A stretch of DNA of 64,000 nucleotides from an uncultured Thermoleophilia bacterium (GCA_963715985.1 CAVQSP010000014.1:1-64000); one strand, 5' to 3'. Positions 2,506 to 9,792 are shown, counted from the first letter of the stretch. A program made the numbers and translations. The notes: generated by a model not told the origin, from the sequence alone.

Positions 2506-4726
2506 TCCCCGGGCGGTCGCGGGGCCGAGGAGCGTGCCGCAGGGTCTGCGACCGCGCCGGCCGCTCGTCCTCGCCTCCGCGGACATCGACGACGGGGCGG
2601 CGGGGGTGGGCGGCAAGGCGCTCGCACTCGCGCGCATGGCGCGCGCCGGCATCGCCGTGCCGCCCTTTCTCGCCGTCACCACCGCGGCCTACGAGGCCTT
2701 CCTCGATGCGGCGCAGCTGCGCGCGCGCATTCTCACCGAGCTCGACCGCAAGGACTTCGCGGACATGCGCTGGGAGGAGATGTGGGACGCGGCCCTGCGC
2801 ATCCGCAGCCTGTTCCTGACGGCGCCGCTGCCGGAGGAGCTGCGGGCGGCGCTCGCGCAGCCCATCGCCGCGCGCTTCGCCGGAGTCGCCACGGTGGTGC
2901 GCTCGTCGGCGCCCGGCGAGGACTCGGCCGGTGCCTCGTTCGCCGGGCTTCACGAGTCCTACGTGAACGTGCGTGGAGTCGACGCGATCCTCGAACACGT
3001 CAAGCTCGTCTGGGCATCCCTGTGGTCGGATGCGGCGCTGCTGTACCGGCGAGAGCTGGGTCTGGACCCGCGTCGCAGCGTGATGGCCGTCGTCGTCCAG
3101 GAGATCGTCGCGGGGGAGTGCGCCGGCGTGGCCTTCAGCCGGCACCCCGAGGACGCCGGCAAGGCCCTGGTGGAGGCCGTGCACGGCCTGAACCAGGGCC
3201 TCGTGGACGGTCTCGTGGAGCCGGACCGCTGGACGCTCGACCGCGCCGACGGGTCCGTGCTCGAGCATCGGGCGGCAGAGCGTCTCGAGATGGTGGCCGC
3301 CGCCCCGGAGGGCACACGTGTGGTTGCCGCTGCCCGGCGAGCTGCGCCGGTGCGCCCCCGCTGGCCGCGGCCGACGTGACGCGCGTGTTCGGCCTCGCAC
3401 GCAGCGCCGAGGGGCACTTCGCGGCGCCGCAGGACGTGGAGTGGACGGTGCGCGGCGACGAGCTCTTCGCCCTCCAGTCCCGGCCCATCACCACACTGAC
3501 CGGGGAGGCCGGTGACGGGCGCGCCACGTACCTGACTCTGCGCCGCAGCTTCGAGAACCTGCAGCGCCTGCGGCGGCGCATCGAGGACGAGGATCTCCCG
3601 GCGCTGGCCGCGGAGGCGGACCGCCTGGCGGCCGTCCGCCTCGAAGACCTGGATGACGCCGGCTTGCTGGCGGCCGCGCGCGAGCGCAAGGCCGCGCACG
3701 ATCGCGGCGTGGACGTCTACGAGGCGGACTTCATCCCGTTCGCGCACGGCGTCCGCCTCTTCGGGAGCGCCTACAACGACGCCCTGCAGCCCGAGGACCC
3801 ATTCGAGTTCACCGACCTGCTGACGGCCACCCCGATGCTGAGCCTGCGCCGCAACGCCGCCCTGGAGCAGGGTGGCCGATCGCCTGCGCGCCGGCGACGT
3901 GACCGGCGCCTCGCGCGACCTCGACGCCTTCGTTGCCGAGTTCGGCGCGATGGAGGACGCGGGAGTGGACCTGCGCGAGCAGGCATTGGCGGTTGCGCGA
4001 CGGCTCGCACAGCGGCCGGCAATGGCGCGGCAGTCGAGGCCCGAGCCGGCGGCGCAAGCGGCTCGCTTCATCGAGTCTCACCCTGAGCCTGAACGTGAAC
4101 GTGCGGCCGAGCTGCTCGAGCTTGGTCGCGCCAGCTGGCGGCTGCGCGACGACGACAACCTGTACCTCGGCCGCCTCGAGCACCTTCTCACGGCCGCCTT
4201 GGACGAGGCGCGGCGTCGCCGGCTCGAGGTCGTCGCCGCGCTCGAACCGCGACCGATCGCGCTGCCGTCGCCGCTCGGCGTGCCGGCGTCCTCCGGCGGG
4301 TCAGCGCCGTCGGCCGGGGCGGCACGGGACGCGCGGGCGGCGCCGCGCGCGGCAGGCGCTCCTCGCTTGGCCCGCGTGCCCCTGCCTGCAGGCGTCCGCA
4401 GCCGGGTGCGCCAGATCGTGGGCCAGCCGGCCGGGCCCGGGCTGGCGGTGGGCACGGCGCGGGTGGTCGCCGGTCGCGACGACCTCGCGGCCTTTGAGGA
4501 CGGCGAGATCCTCGTCTGCGACGCCGTCCAGCCGGAGATGACGTTCATCGTGCCGCTCGCCGCCGGCATCGTGGAGCGCCGTGGCGGCATGTTGATCCAC
4601 GGCGCCATCATCGCTCGCGAGTACGGGCTGCCGTGCGTCACCGGCGTGCCCGGCGCCACCGAGCTCATTCGCACCGGCGACCGGGTGACCGTGGACGGCT
4701 ACCTGGGCATCGTGATCGTCGGCTGA
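2498..4726 (+). CDS. PEP/pyruvate-binding (PPDK_N) + PEP-utilising mobile-domain protein (PEP synthase / rifamycin phosphotransferase-like architecture), frameshifts near 3345 and 3870
   Basis: VGGKA, VRSSAPGEDSAGASFAGLHES, PQDVEW..LQSRPIT and the C-terminal phospho-His swivel motif GGMLIHGAIIAREYGLPCV, spread over three frames. Start uncertain. Confidence 0.85.
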
Positions 4727-4867
4727 GCGGCGCCGCGGCCGGCAACGACGCGCCGAGCGCGCGGTGCCCGTCGCGAGGCACAAGTGGCGCCCCGCTCGCG
4801 TCTCTTCCTCCCCGCCCCTGGGAAGACTACAGTGTGAAGGCGGATGCGGCGTCGGGGGGAGGCGGTC

Positions 4868-6265
4868 ATGGCAGCGCGGGGGATGTCGTGGGTCCGGACC
4901 TTGTCCATCATGGCGCGGTGGTGCGCATTCCTGCTCGCGGCGGGCATGGCCGTGGGTCTGGCCGCCGGATGCGGCTCGGGCGGCGGCGATTCAAGCGGCT
5001 CGAGCGCCGCCGCATCCCCGTCCGCCTCAGCCTCCGCCGGCTCCTCTTCCTCCACTGTGCTTGTCGATGTGAGCAGCGGTGGCGGCGCGGCCGCGGCCCC
5101 CGACCGCGCCGAGATAGAGCGCCGTCTCGCGCTGCCGCGCTTCACCTACGTCGGTGAGGTGGACGTCGACGCCGGCCAGTACCAGGGCGCCCTGGCCGTC
5201 ATCGACTCGGAGACCGACACGTTGGCCCATCGGCCCCTCATCGGCACGTACCTCTCACAGGTCGCCGTGGCGCCCGACGGACGCCTGGTGTACGTCACCG
5301 ACCGCGAGAAGCCGGTGATCCATGTCGTCGACGCCGAGACGAACAACGAGGTGCGCACCATCAGGCTTCCCGGTGTGAGACCCTCGACGAAGAAGATCAC
5401 CGCCACCGGCAAGGTGTGTTACGCGGACATGCTGGGATGCTCGTCGGCGGTCGCCTGCACCCCCGGCGGCGGCCTCGTCCTGGTGCTCTCCAAGGCCGGT
5501 CTTCAGGTGATCGACACGGCCACGTACGAAGTGGTACGCACCATGCCGGAGCTCCGCGACGGCTACGACCTGGCGGTGAGCTTCGACGGCCGGCACGCCT
5601 ACATCGCCACCGTCGACTCCCTCCGGCGTGGGTACAAGACGCTCCTCGAGTGGGTCGGGCGCTCTGTCCGCGGCGAAGGCGGCGGCTTGGCACTGCTGGA
5701 TCTTGAGAGCTGGGAGGTGGTCAAGAGGGTCAAGTGCGGTCAGGTCGGCGGCATCGCCGTCGACCCCGACGACAGCCGTCTCTTCTGCAGCGACTTCAAG
5801 CTGAAGGCGCTGCGCATCGTCGATCCGGACACGCTGGCCGACATCGCGGTCGTGTCGCTGAAGTCGGCCAAGGCCAGGTACTTCCAGCCGCGGGGCGTGG
5901 GCGTGCTGCCTGACGGCAGCAAGGTCTACGTCGTCTGCGCCGCGGTCTCCCCCAGCGACCCGATGACGGCCGCGGCCGGGGCGAGCCCTGATCTGTTCTT
6001 CTGCGCCGTGGTCAGGACAGACACGCAGGAGGTCGTCAAGCGCATTCCCCTGGACGCCTACTGACCGCTGTACATCGCCGTCCGGTCGGACGGCAAGAAG
6101 GCCTACCTCACCGGCGGTCCCATCCGCCGCGCCGTGGTCATCGACACCGTCAAGGACGTCGTGCTCGGCGACATCGGCGACAAGGTCGTCCAGACTGACG
6201 GCTTGGCCGTACGGCCGTTCTGGTGGTCGGCGGCCAGCATGGAGGTGCTGAGCGGCCGGCAGTGA
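4868..6265 (+). CDS. YVTN/YncE-type beta-propeller lipoprotein with in-frame TGA at 6062-6064 (candidate selenocysteine)
   Basis: RBS GGAGG, lipobox LAAGC, Ser/Ala linker and repeated blades (VAVAPDGRLVYV, LAVSFDGRHAYI, VGVLPDGSKVYV). Another blade (PLYIAVRSDGKKAYL..AVVIDT) follows the TGA in frame up to TGA 6263-6265. Confidence 0.8.
6065..6094 (+). promoter_or_regulatory. Putative bacterial SECIS element
   Basis: Perfect 7-bp stem GCCGTCC (6077-6083)/GGACGGC (6088-6094) with loop GGTC, starting 12 nt after the in-frame TGA. It resembles the E. coli fdhF SECIS (GGUC loop, 11-nt spacer). Confidence 0.65.
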
Positions 6266-6288
6266 AGGCTCCCGAGGCCGCGGCTCGC

Positions 6289-6694
6289 TTGCGTGCGGCC
6301 GCGCCGCCTGCGTATCGTGGGCGCGCCGCGCCAGCGCGCCCGACGCGCGAGGAGCCGCAGGGAAACGCACCTGATGCTTGGCAACGAGGCCGTCGCGCGC
6401 GGGGCCTGGGAGGCCGGCGTGCTGGTCGCCGCCGCGTACCCCGAGGCCATCAAGGCCGTCGGCGCCGGCAAGGCCCAGGCGACCATCATGGACGAGCTCC
6501 CGGCCGACTACCACATCAGCCGGTGCGGCCTCTCCGACACGGTCGTGCAGGCCGGGCAGCCTCCGGACGACGGCGTCATGACGCTCCCGGTGCAGAAGGA
6601 CGACACCGTGCTCCTCGGCATCCTCAACCAGGGCATGGCGTCCATCAGCGACGCGGAGATCCTGGCCATCCGTGACCAGCGGATGAGCCGGTGA
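6289..6694 (+). pseudogene. Chimeric remnant: duplicated iorA promoter/5' end fused to the C-terminal part of a family-3 (amino-acid) substrate-binding domain
   Basis: 6289-6442 closely matches 7843-7998 (ETHLMLGNEAVARGAWxAGVLVAAAYP) with ATG changed to AGG, then EAIKAVGAGKAQATIMDELPADY...KDDTVLLGILNQGMASIS. Confidence 0.65.
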
Positions 6695-6864
6695 CCTGAC
6701 CCCGCGCGGGCGGGCACGCTGATGGCGAACGCCGCCGTGTCCGCCCGCCCCCGGGGCATCGGTACGGTCCCGGCGCGAGCGCCCGAGTGGCGATGCGTCC
6801 CTTCTGGTGGTCTACTGCCTGCATGGACGTTCTGCGCGAAGCGCAGTGATGCTGGAGGTATGGG

Positions 6865-7815
6865 GTGCGCGTTCTCATCGTCGGGCTGGGGGTCATCGGT
6901 ACCGGGTACGGCTGTGCGTTTCGTGACTACGGGCATGAGGTGACCCATCTGCTGCGGCCCGGGCGCGCGGCGCAGGTCCCCAGACGCATCCTCGTCGACA
7001 TGTTGGACATGCGCCCGGGCAGGCTCGGCCTGAAGACCCTCGCGTACGGGCCGGTCGCCACCGAGACGGTGTCGGCCGAGGACGGCTACGACCTCGTCAT
7101 GGTCCCCGTGAAGCACTACCAGGTCGGCGAGGCACTGCGCGAGCTCACGGCCTCGCTGCCCGACGCGCGCTACCTGCTCTTCGCCGCCAACTGGGACGGC
7201 CTGGCAGAGGTGGACGCGCTGCTGCCTCGCTCGCAGTACACGTGGGGCTACTCCTCCTCCACCGGCGGCCACAGCGGTTCCACGCTCGTGTTCAACATGA
7301 GTCCCACGTACCGCTGCGGTCCCATAGACGGCGCCGAGCCCGAGTGGACGCCGGACGTGGTCCAGCTGTTCGATTCGGTGGACGTGATCCCGGACCGCAA
7401 GCCCGACATGCGCGAGTGGCTCTGGGTGCATTTCGCGCAGGCCGCAGGGACCATAGGCGCGACCCTCTACGCCGGCGGCCTGGCCCCGTTCTACGAGGAC
7501 CAGGACGGTCTTCGCGAGCGCCTGGTGCCGGCGGTGCGCGAGTGCCTGGACGTGCTCTCGGCGCGCGGCCTCGACCCGGCGGCGTGGCCCGACGTGGCGC
7601 CGTTCCTCACGCGCTCTCCCGAGGAGATCGCCGCCTCCGTGTACGGCACGCTCGGCACCCCGTGGGTACAGCGCACGCTCTCAGCCGGGCACTTCATGGA
7701 GAACGCCGACGAGATGCGGCGGTTCTATCTCGACGTGCTCGCCACCGGTGAGGCGCTGGGCGTGCCGATGCCGGTGATGCAGAGCTTCCGGGAGAGGGTC
7801 ACGGCCGGCGGCTGA
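6865..7815 (+). CDS. Ketopantoate reductase (ApbA/PanE) family protein
   Basis: RVLIVGLGVIGTGYG Rossmann motif, YDLVMVPVKHYQ, and C-terminal GEALGVPMP. Confidence 0.75.
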   Translation: MRVLIVGLGVIGTGYGCAFRDYGHEVTHLLRPGRAAQVPRRILVDMLDMRPGRLGLKTLAYGPVATETVSAEDGYDLVMVPVKHYQVGEALRELTASLPDARYLLFAANWDGLAEVDALLPRSQYTWGYSSSTGGHSGSTLVFNMSPTYRCGPIDGAEPEWTPDVVQLFDSVDVIPDRKPDMREWLWVHFAQAAGTIGATLYAGGLAPFYEDQDGLRERLVPAVRECLDVLSARGLDPAAWPDVAPFLTRSPEEIAASVYGTLGTPWVQRTLSAGHFMENADEMRRFYLDVLATGEALGVPMPVMQSFRERVTAGG

Positions 7816-7842
7816 CGAGTCGTACGGCCGCGGCCGGCGCGC

Positions 7843-7872
7843 TTGCGCACGGGCGCGCGGCCTGCGTATCGT
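7843..7872 (+). promoter_or_regulatory. Putative sigma70-type promoter of the ior-paaK operon
   Basis: TTGCGC-N18-TATCGT; conserved as TTGCGT-N18-TATCGT in the duplicate at 6289-6318. Confidence 0.5.
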
Positions 7873-7914
7873 GGGCGCCGCGCGCGCCAGCGCGCCAGAC
7901 GCACAAGGAGCCGT

Positions 7915-9792
7915 ATGGAAACGCACCTCATGCTCGGCAACGAGGCCGTCGCCCGCGGGGCGTGGGACGCCGGTGTGCTGGTCGCGGCCGCGTACCCGGG
8001 CACGCCCAGCACCGAGATCGTCACCAACCTCGCGCGCTACGAGGGCGTGTACGCCGAGTGGTCCACCAACGAGAAGGTCGCCTACGAGGTGGCCTTCGGG
8101 GCGGCCATGGGCGGCGCCCGTGCCCTCACGGCCATGAAGAGCGCCGGCGCCAGCGTGGCCGCAGACCCGCTCATCAGCTCCGTCTACACCGGCATCAACG
8201 GCGGGCTCGTGGTCTGCCTGGCCGGCGACCCCGGCATGGCCAGCGGCATGACCGAACAGGACGACCGCTACTTCGGCCGCATGAGCTCCATGCCCATGCT
8301 CGAGCCCGCCGACAGCCAGGAGTGCTACGAGTACGTCAAGCGCGCCTTCGAGATGAGCGAGGAGTTCGACGTGCCGGTGATGGTGCGCCTCAGCATCCAG
8401 ACGGCGCACCAGAAGTCCATCGTGCACATCGACGGCGACGGCGGGGCGACGGCGGGAGGCGGCGAGGGCGGAGGAGCCGGCGACCCGGCCAAGCTCGTCC
8501 GCACGCCGCCGGAGCGCAAGCCGCCGCACCGCATCACCGAGAAGTACTGCCTGCTACCGCGCTTCTCGCGGCCGCTGCACCGCAGCCTGCTGGAGCGCGT
8601 GGAGCGCCTCCGCGCCTACTCCGAGGCGAGCGCGCTGGCCGGCGAGCTGGCGCGCGTGGAGCCGGCCGCCTGCGAGGTGCGCCTGCGCGACGGCGGCTCG
8701 GCGCGCATCGGCGTCGTCGCGGCCGGCGCCGCCTACGTGAGCGCCAAGGAGGCGCTGCCCGAGGCCGCCTTCCTCAAGCTCGGCATGATCCACCCGCTGC
8801 CGCTGGACGCCATCGCCGACTTCGCCGACACGGTGGACCGCCTGTTCGTGGTCGAGGAGCTGGAGCCATATCTGGAGGAGCAGCTGCTCGCCGCCGGCAT
8901 CTCCTGCGAGGGCAAGGAGTGGTTCCCGGCCTGGGGCGAGCTCACGGCGGCGCGTGTGGGCCGGGGCTTCTACGAGGCCGGCCTCGACCTGCCGCGCTGG
9001 GCGGCCGAGAAGGCCGCGGAGGACGACTCCGTCATCCCGCGGCCGCCCGTGCTGTGCACCGGCTGCCCGCACCGCGGTATGGCCACGGCCATGAAGAAGC
9101 TCGACCTCGACGTGCACGGCGACATCGGCTGCTACGACCTCACCACGCTGCCGCCGGTGAGCCACATGCACTCGGCCTTCGAGATGGGCGCCAGCATCCC
9201 CATCGAGCAGGGCTTCACGCGCGCCGGCGGCAGCGCCAAGGGGTCCATCGCCGTCATCGGCGACTCGACCTTCCTGCACAGCGGCCTGACGGGACTCCTG
9301 AACGCCGTGCACCAGCGCACCAACGTCACCGTGCTCATCCAGGACAACCGCATCACCGCCATGACCGGGGGCCAGACCAACCCCGGCAACGAGACGACGC
9401 TGGCCGGCACGCAGACGGCGCCGGTCGACCTCGCCGCCATCTGCCGCGCCCTCGGCGTGGAGTTCGTGGAGCACGTGGATCCCTACGACTACGACGCCTG
9501 CCTCAAGGGCCTGAAGGCCGGGCTCGCCTTCGACGGCCCGGCCGTGCTCATCACCACCCGTCCCTGCATGCTCTTCCCGGCCAAGCTCGCCGGCGACCCC
9601 TACGTGGTCGACGAGGAGCTCTGCAACGCCTGCCAGCAGTGCATGAAGCTCGGCTGCCCGTCGCTGCACCACGTGGAGGCCGTGCACAAGACCCGCCGCA
9701 AGGTGGAGATCGACGTGGAGACCTGCACCGGCTGCTCGCTGTGCGCGCAGCTCTGCAGACCGGGCGCCATCGCGAAGGCGGGTGCGTCGTGA
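7915..9792 (+). CDS. iorA: Indolepyruvate:ferredoxin oxidoreductase subunit alpha
   Basis: MLGNEAVARG, YPGTPSTEI, EWSTNEKVA, RPPVLCTGCPHR, GDIGCY, GDSTFLHSG..DNRITAMTGGQ and two C-terminal ferredoxin Cys motifs. Confidence 0.95.
   Translation: METHLMLGNEAVARGAWDAGVLVAAAYPGTPSTEIVTNLARYEGVYAEWSTNEKVAYEVAFGAAMGGARALTAMKSAGASVAADPLISSVYTGINGGLVVCLAGDPGMASGMTEQDDRYFGRMSSMPMLEPADSQECYEYVKRAFEMSEEFDVPVMVRLSIQTAHQKSIVHIDGDGGATAGGGEGGGAGDPAKLVRTPPERKPPHRITEKYCLLPRFSRPLHRSLLERVERLRAYSEASALAGELARVEPAACEVRLRDGGSARIGVVAAGAAYVSAKEALPEAAFLKLGMIHPLPLDAIADFADTVDRLFVVEELEPYLEEQLLAAGISCEGKEWFPAWGELTAARVGRGFYEAGLDLPRWAAEKAAEDDSVIPRPPVLCTGCPHRGMATAMKKLDLDVHGDIGCYDLTTLPPVSHMHSAFEMGASIPIEQGFTRAGGSAKGSIAVIGDSTFLHSGLTGLLNAVHQRTNVTVLIQDNRITAMTGGQTNPGNETTLAGTQTAPVDLAAICRALGVEFVEHVDPYDYDACLKGLKAGLAFDGPAVLITTRPCMLFPAKLAGDPYVVDEELCNACQQCMKLGCPSLHHVEAVHKTRRKVEIDVETCTGCSLCAQLCRPGAIAKAGAS

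Follow-up and report, generated by a model that had tools for sequence, protein, structure and literature searches.

The window analysed here is a contig stretch of 64,000 nucleotides (nt) from an uncultured Thermoleophilia bacterium (GCA_963715985.1 CAVQSP010000014.1:1-64000), whose genome we refer to as G000. On its plus strand, positions 4868-6265 hold a gene that very probably encodes a beta-propeller selenoprotein of 465 residues, with one in-frame UGA read as selenocysteine (Sec). A putative ribosome-binding site, GGAGG, can be read from the sequence at 4858-4862, 5 nt before the ATG at 4868, and homologues begin at the equivalent Met. The first part of the gene (4868-4972) would encode a signal peptide with the lipobox LAAGC, its Cys35 at 4970-4972, followed by a linker rich in Ser, Gly and Ala. 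From the ATG, 398 sense codons run to ...VVKRIPLDAY and are followed by a TGA at 6062-6064 (codon 399). Beyond this codon the same frame reads PLYIAVRSDGKKAYL... and stays open for 66 sense codons (6065-6262), up to the TGA at 6263-6265. After a spacer of 12 nt, a hairpin with a 7-bp stem (GCCGUCC/GGACGGC) and a GGUC loop lies at 6077-6094. An earlier note on this DNA had described the internal TGA, the 66 further codons and the hairpin, and each is confirmed at these positions.

Taken alone, these features are not unusual. On this contig, in a genome of 70% G+C, a frame stays open for 66 codons at 52% of random positions, and the 49-nt fold that includes the hairpin (-15.9 kcal/mol, z = -0.81) is equalled or bettered by 34 of 200 shuffles. 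Because the single-sequence features do not rise above chance, their significance rests solely on comparison with homologues. Open codons at such a frequency and a hairpin of ordinary energy would suit a true 398-residue propeller that ends at 6062-6064 and leaves behind it an untranslated remnant or a terminator-like element. Gene callers also end 89 of 100 homologues at this point.

The homologues indicate that this codon is not an ordinary end of the gene. We collected homologous DNA from relatives of the window genome, from a sample of 401 genomes of the class, from all 61 genomes of a second family of the class (f4), from GTDB contigs named as uncultured Thermoleophilia, Actinomycetota and Gaiellales metagenome-assembled genomes, and from metagenome contigs. 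All 75 homologous sites recovered are TGA, across 42 distinct 60-nt contexts, and none is TGC, TGT or TGG. These sites, from uncultured Thermoleophilia and related Actinomycetota, cover two families of the class, and identity between the proteins falls to approximately 45%. Full-length matches in relatives hold exactly one internal TGA. Likewise, all 12 matches that span the Sec position in a search of the 61 f4 genomes with the protein P0108 have one TGA, and this search returned no form without it. The earlier note had left open whether homologues would carry Cys or UGA in this column. It is UGA in 75 of 75 cases, with the hairpin conserved, and no Cys form appeared among the homologues examined. 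Note that nine of the GTDB and metagenome loci yielded no site: L031-L036 are distant propellers outside the family, and the matches of L056, L058 and L061 stop short. Two loci of the class sample, L090 and L095, match only the part after the Sec codon. TGA also serves as an ordinary stop in these genomes, as the read-through open reading frames (ORFs) end in TGA in 56 of 75 cases.

The same comparison bears on the possibility that a nonsense mutation has made the gene a pseudogene, or that the TGA is an assembly or sequencing error. Such damage does occur nearby and in relatives: the neighbouring ppsA-like gene has two frameshifts against a single-ORF homologue, two genomes carry homologues with an extra in-frame TAG, and one retains no more than a remnant. 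However, a chance lesion is hard to reconcile with 75 of 75 TGA codons in 42 contexts from many assemblies, or with an ORF that is otherwise intact and aligns over its full length. Furthermore, wetland metagenome contigs from independent runs (X1 and X4) bridge 6062-6064 and show the codon unchanged. We therefore give almost no credence to a lesion at this codon, and read the TGA as a conserved feature of the family.

Copy number and integrity vary among the relatives. Second or tandem propeller copies were seen in L021, G004, G357 and G062; contig 9 of G357 (L021 / L069) carries two tandem propeller selenoprotein genes, each with its own TGA and hairpin, and the variable hairpin pair is A-U in one gene and G-C in the other. 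The homologues with an extra TAG besides the TGA, in G008 (L009/L023/L071) and G153 (L074), may be pseudogenes or reflect sequencing errors. On contig 11 of G002 (approximately 390737-391006; L013 / L090), just the TGA and the 66 downstream codons are left, with unrelated sequence before them and the hairpin intact; this is a deletion remnant.

In protein databases the family appears in a shortened form. When we searched with the read-through product, 89 of 100 matches terminated exactly at ...IPLxxY, and the downstream VRPFWW motif was present in none of the 100. The homologues are named 'YncE family protein' or 'hypothetical protein', and all are truncated. This common end point is explained by gene callers stopping at a conserved in-frame UGA, and most likely the database versions of the propeller lack their last blade because they were cut there. 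The distant homologues P0074-P0094, P0111 and P0112 presumably have the TGA as well, judging from where the called proteins end.

Few parts of the protein are better conserved than the peptide downstream of the TGA, U-P-x-x-I-A-[VI]-R-S-D-G-x-K-A-Y...VVIDT...GVAVRPFWWS, even as its codons vary at the third position. Amino acid conservation together with synonymous variation indicates that the frame downstream of the UGA is coding. In f4, at approximately 45-53% identity, 11 of the 13 loci listed have a frame that continues for 181-255 codons beyond the UGA, and one more ends with its contig. These extensions encode, in order, an acidic linker rich in Gly, Ser and Thr, a transmembrane helix, an RGRRG stop-transfer motif and, at the C-terminus, a zinc ribbon (PF13240, 29.3 bits; cut-off 25).

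The downstream part also appears to complete the fold. An AlphaFold2 model of residues 80-465, built from 26 read-through homologues, has a predicted local distance difference test score (pLDDT) of 90.9 and a predicted template modelling score (pTM) of 0.91. Read from its list of strands, the model has seven four-stranded blades, with the post-TGA residues making up the entire last blade. The post-UGA strands are model residues 323-370, of which the final strand (362-370), assigned without coordinates, would complete the first blade. Termination at the TGA would thus leave the propeller open and incomplete. A protein that truly ends after 398 residues is difficult to square with a downstream peptide conserved, with synonymous variation, to approximately 45% identity, with a confident model that takes its last blade and final strand from this region, or with the in-frame membrane helix and zinc ribbon of f4. 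Nor does a T-run follow the hairpin. We consider that ending extremely improbable, and take the gene to continue through the TGA to 6263-6265.

Profile searches identify the fold and little beyond it. The generic YVTN repeat model TIGR02276 was the sole profile passed (34.0 against a cut-off of 27.85). Scores for specific models were far lower than their cut-offs: 35.4 against 400 for YncE (NF052280), 43.3 against 560 for hydrazine synthase beta and 35.6 against 700 for L-NosZ, with AztD also far below its own. The propeller therefore belongs to none of these families, and the database name 'YncE family' is a label at fold level only. The best Foldseek match is the YVTN domain of an archaeal S-layer protein (1l0q_A, E 7.6e-23, TM score 0.67), followed by 5c2v_B, 3bws_A and 6tv2_A; matches also cover hydrazine synthase beta, Lp49, NirF and the heavy chains of amine dehydrogenases. 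The YVTN signature and the confident model bear out the beta-propeller that the earlier note had recognized.

Its proposal that the protein lies outside the cytoplasm also holds, on the predicted lipobox and the topology of relatives. Residues 31-35 (LAAGC) form what we take to be a lipobox, and close homologues retain the L/V-x-G-C box. Several f4 members have no lipobox Cys and carry a signal or anchor sequence and the C-terminal transmembrane helix instead. In both arrangements, the propeller is predicted to lie outside the cell. The loop that joins the outer strand of blade 6 to the inner strand of blade 7 contains Sec399, three residues before the latter strand. In the usual propeller topology, loops of this kind ring the central channel on one face, and Sec399 would be expected on that face.

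The hairpin has the marks of a constrained RNA element. Its geometry is fixed across the family: the spacer is 12 nt and the loop GGUC without exception, which places the loop 19 nt from the UGA. Across 30 distinct sequences, all 210 cells of the seven-pair stem are paired. One pair, 6080-6091, varies in a compensatory manner: it is A-U in 16 of these sequences, G-C in 10 and G.U in four; across all 42 contexts it is G-C in 21, A-U in 14, G.U in six and A/C in one. A Val-to-Ile change on one arm accompanies a synonymous GAC-to-GAT change on the other. The covariation score was matched by none of 500 shuffles, a control that ignores relatedness and so does not give a probability. Codon usage within the hairpin is almost frozen. 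Among 45 distinct sequences, Arg is CGG, Ser is TCG and Gly is GGC in 45 of 45 each, and Ala is GCC in 43 and GCT in two; in the 12 other invariant columns of the same stretch whose codons are four-fold degenerate or more, codon entropy is never below 0.76 bits.

These properties agree with the published consensus for bacterial selenocysteine insertion sequences (bSECIS), which gives an apical loop of 3-9 nt, an upper stem of 4-16 bp, a G in the first two loop positions, a distance of 16-37 nt from UGA to loop and a minimum free energy (MFE) of -7.5 kcal/mol or lower (PMC13188914, Fig. 2 legend). The propeller element falls within this consensus throughout, with a loop of 4 nt (GGUC), a stem of 7 bp, a G within the first two loop positions, a UGA-loop distance of 19 nt and an MFE of -15.9 kcal/mol over 49 nt. 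An Rfam scan of 5950-6300 (E up to 10) returned no SECIS family and two chance microRNA matches.

The genome has the machinery that Sec insertion needs. The earlier note had pointed to selA, selB, selC and selD as the genes to look for, and all four are present in G000. A selD-selA-selB cluster lies on contig 13 at 101879-107000 (SelA 441.9 bits, SelB wing domain 58.7 bits, selD 326.1 bits), and ARAGORN finds a tRNA-SeC (selC) on the same contig at 139538-139635. The selD gene itself has an in-frame TGA (..AKSG-U-AAKLGP.., GU-AAK motif). A further selenoprotein gene, FdhA-like, lies on the minus strand of contig 10 at approximately 180000-182200 and has a SECIS with a GGUCU loop. Of the 401 sampled genomes, 23 have the propeller (G002 as a remnant only), and SelA was found in 22 of these 23. 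SelA is common in the class in general, with 273 of the 401 genomes having it; this count takes in G350, which is flagged as unpublished.

Several observations nonetheless count against selenocysteine at this codon, beyond the unremarkable single-sequence values given above. Because SelA is so common in the class, its co-occurrence with the propeller discriminates weakly. In one carrier, G004 (assembly 93% complete, two intact TGA copies), selA, selB and selD were not found. The stem carries an A/C mismatch in two variants, L084 and a relative from run X4. An extension of the stem downward, in which the UGA region would pair with GGCGG further on, was considered and is unsupported, with 69.6% of cells paired. 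No homologue with Cys in place of Sec was found in the 100 protein matches, nor in the best 150 of 1.84 billion cluster representatives searched. Cys-containing homologues exist for most selenoprotein families; they are a customary search criterion and not a requirement of the mechanism. Two proteins dispense with Sec: P0140, a fragment, has Gln at the site, and P0108, a full-length protein that includes the helix and the zinc ribbon, has VGTADG inserted there. Both read IAVQADG in place of IAVRSDG, so that the RSDG motif is absent. As they read through, the Sec residue is not indispensable to the fold.

For G004, a missing contig that holds the selDAB cluster is the likelier explanation, given that this genome has a tRNA-Sec match (51.4 bits, cut-off 47) and an FdhA-like gene with its own TGA. 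The lack of selABD in G004, the failure to find Cys homologues and the Sec-less forms with Gln or an insertion would also fit a UGA that is read through without Sec, either by a near-cognate tRNA (Trp, Cys or Arg) or as a regulated leaky stop that the hairpin merely stimulates. If any residue sufficed, however, sense mutations should be frequent, and they occur at none of the 75 sites. The geometry of the hairpin and its GGUC-type loop match the FdhA SECIS of the same genome and that of Escherichia coli fdhF, SelA accompanies the propeller in all but one of its carriers, and TGA is the ordinary stop of these same genes. Read-through without Sec is thus very unlikely, and selenocysteine remains by far the better account of the codon.

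Together, these data suggest how the gene would be expressed. In the mRNA, the hairpin at 6077-6094 would act as a bacterial SECIS, and SelB with Sec-tRNA(Sec) would bind it and deliver Sec when the UGA occupies the A site, with the selD-selA-selB cluster and tRNA-Sec of the genome supplying the machinery. The product would be an exported lipoprotein that folds as a seven-bladed YVTN-type beta-propeller on the cell surface. With low certainty, the selenol of Sec399 may be the working group of an extracytoplasmic redox site or a soft-metal/chalcogen site, possibly acting with Cys379 and Cys357 of the adjoining blade. We put the probability that the gene at 4868-6265 encodes a 465-residue surface beta-propeller selenoprotein, with the UGA at 6062-6064 read as Sec, at roughly 90%, judged from sequence comparison. 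The earlier note's central proposal, a new selenoprotein with an fdhF-like SECIS, is thus sustained by the conserved TGA, the downstream coding sequence, the hairpin, the machinery and the shared GGUC-type loops.

What the selenol would do is far less clear-cut. In the 26-sequence alignment two Cys residues are invariant, both in blade 6: C357 (YVVC, strand B) and C379 (FFC, at the start of strand C). The earlier note had placed the Sec partner elsewhere, at a Cys of another blade in equivalent register. That register is correct, as C191 (CSSAVACTPGG) and U399 (UPLYIAVRSDG) each stand 10 residues before the last G of their blade. The partnership does not hold up: C191 is replaced in several f4 members and so is not conserved across the family, and it precedes what we count as the third blade, which from blade order should be well round the ring from the last. 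A surface selenol site for redox chemistry or for binding soft metals or chalcogens has, in our judgement, about an even chance of being correct. If it is a redox site, Sec399 could possibly form a selenenylsulfide with C379 or C357; we see no basis for choosing between redox and metal binding.

Two kinds of evidence speak against such a function. P0111 and P0112 end at the Sec site and have no C379, and P0112 has no C357 either. The gene neighbours also vary by lineage and are ordinary genes of anaerobic metabolism, as called with a crude GC3 filter that misses some genes. In genus g1, eight loci have a ppsA-like gene upstream and six have an iorA-like gene downstream; the g25 gene is accompanied by a HAD hydrolase, a LysR regulator, an aldehyde:ferredoxin oxidoreductase, a Zn-ADH and an [FeFe] hydrogenase; and the genes of g13 and g38 by a beta-CASP nuclease, an acetyl-CoA synthetase and an E1 dehydrogenase. 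With no neighbour common to the lineages, we draw no function from gene context.

Reading these features jointly, we can sketch a speculative role, which we regard as rather unlikely to be right in full. A lone selenol at the mouth of the channel and the lack of Cys forms could belong to an obligately selenium-dependent surface enzyme or sensor whose chemistry lies beyond that of sulfur. In anoxic wetland sediment, such a protein might oxidize or capture sulfide, selenide, methanethiol or soft metals. In the zinc-ribbon lineage, the cytoplasmic ribbon, linked through the helix, might signal this surface chemistry inward, with selenium supply deciding which of two forms, the anchored full-length one or a truncated one, is produced.

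The DNA around the gene shows signs of local change. Upstream, the PEP-utilising (PpsA-like) gene at 2414-4726 matches the single-ORF homologue L027 in three pieces, in frame 2 (2702-3316), frame 1 (3358-3870) and frame 2 again (3869-4723); these imply two frameshifts, and hence a pseudogene or an assembly error. Downstream, positions 6788-6849 repeat, at 74% identity, the final 62 nt of the propeller gene (6204-6265), and read ..VAMRPFWWSTACMDVLREAQ*. Stops and unrelated sequence precede this copy, which appears to be what is left of the 3' end of a lost paralogue. The region upstream of the iorA-like gene and its first codons (MLGNEAVARGAW..AAYP) are likewise duplicated, at 6281-6441 and 7835-7997, with 78-90% identity and a spacing of approximately 1555 nt. 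In relatives iorA directly follows the propeller gene, whereas in the window approximately 1.5 kb lie between them, holding the 6788-6849 remnant and an ApbA/PanE-like gene (6865-7815). The duplication and this altered spacing point to a local rearrangement.

If the assignment is correct, it adds a new fold to the bacterial selenoproteome, a set dominated by thioredoxin-like redox proteins, and gives the uncultured anaerobic Thermoleophilia of wetlands and sediments a surface-exposed selenoprotein. That Cys-form homologues were not found hints that selenium serves here as more than a better sulfur. The annotation error is systematic: 89 of 100 family matches lose the last blade, and one lineage also loses its membrane anchor and zinc ribbon. 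The near-invariant 18-nt hairpin, with a GGUC-type loop common to FdhA, offers a clean SECIS signature for finding further selenoproteins of the class.

Compared with described selenoproteins, the family appears to be new. No beta-propeller, YVTN or YncE entry occurs among the 119 prokaryotic selenoprotein families and subfamilies in Table 1 of a recent catalogue (Zhang et al., AEM 2026, PMC13188914), in keeping with the earlier note, which knew of no YVTN propeller in described selenoprotein families. The word 'propeller' does not occur in the main texts of that catalogue, of deep-Sep (PMC12013277), of BSepDB (PMC13326102) or of the Haft preprint (10.1101/2022.07.06.499078). Literature on selenoproteins or selenocysteine together with beta-propeller, YncE, YVTN or Thermoleophilia yielded nothing relevant, although the supplements of surveys might list such a family. 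The catalogued families resemble the propeller in having a UGA and a bSECIS inside a bacterial ORF (PMC13188914). Closer in setting are SaoX and SaoB, extracytoplasmic substrate-binding (lipo)proteins that were predicted from genomes to be selenoproteins (10.1101/2022.07.06.499078). They too are exported or lipid-anchored, truncated at the TGA in databases, and proposed to use Sec as a soft-metal ligand. They differ in having a periplasmic-binding-protein fold, CU or UxP motifs beside Cys, a conserved operon and Cys members, whereas the propeller family has a Y-U-P motif, no adjacent Cys, no conserved operon and no Cys form found.

YVTN/YncE-type propellers such as 1L0Q, E. coli YncE, hydrazine synthase beta and NirF share the repeat and the fold, and several are also extracytoplasmic; the literature searched yields no mention of selenocysteine for them. 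The nearest parallels for the RNA element are the SECIS of formate dehydrogenases. The FdhA-like gene on contig 10 of the same genome (..CART-U-HAPTVAG..) has a 7-bp G/C stem and a GGUCU loop 18 nt past the UGA, after a spacer of 11 nt. E. coli fdhF likewise has its hairpin inside the coding sequence right after the UGA, and the statement in the earlier note of a GGUC loop at nearly the same distance proves accurate, as the loop of K-12 fdhF is GGUC at 18 nt after the UGA, against 19 nt here. The propeller element departs from these in its perfect stem, which is without the bulged U that is important for SelB binding in E. coli, in having no conserved lower stem back to the UGA, and in the unrelated protein that hosts it. 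The recoding mechanism is wholly standard, and the novelty lies in the protein family.

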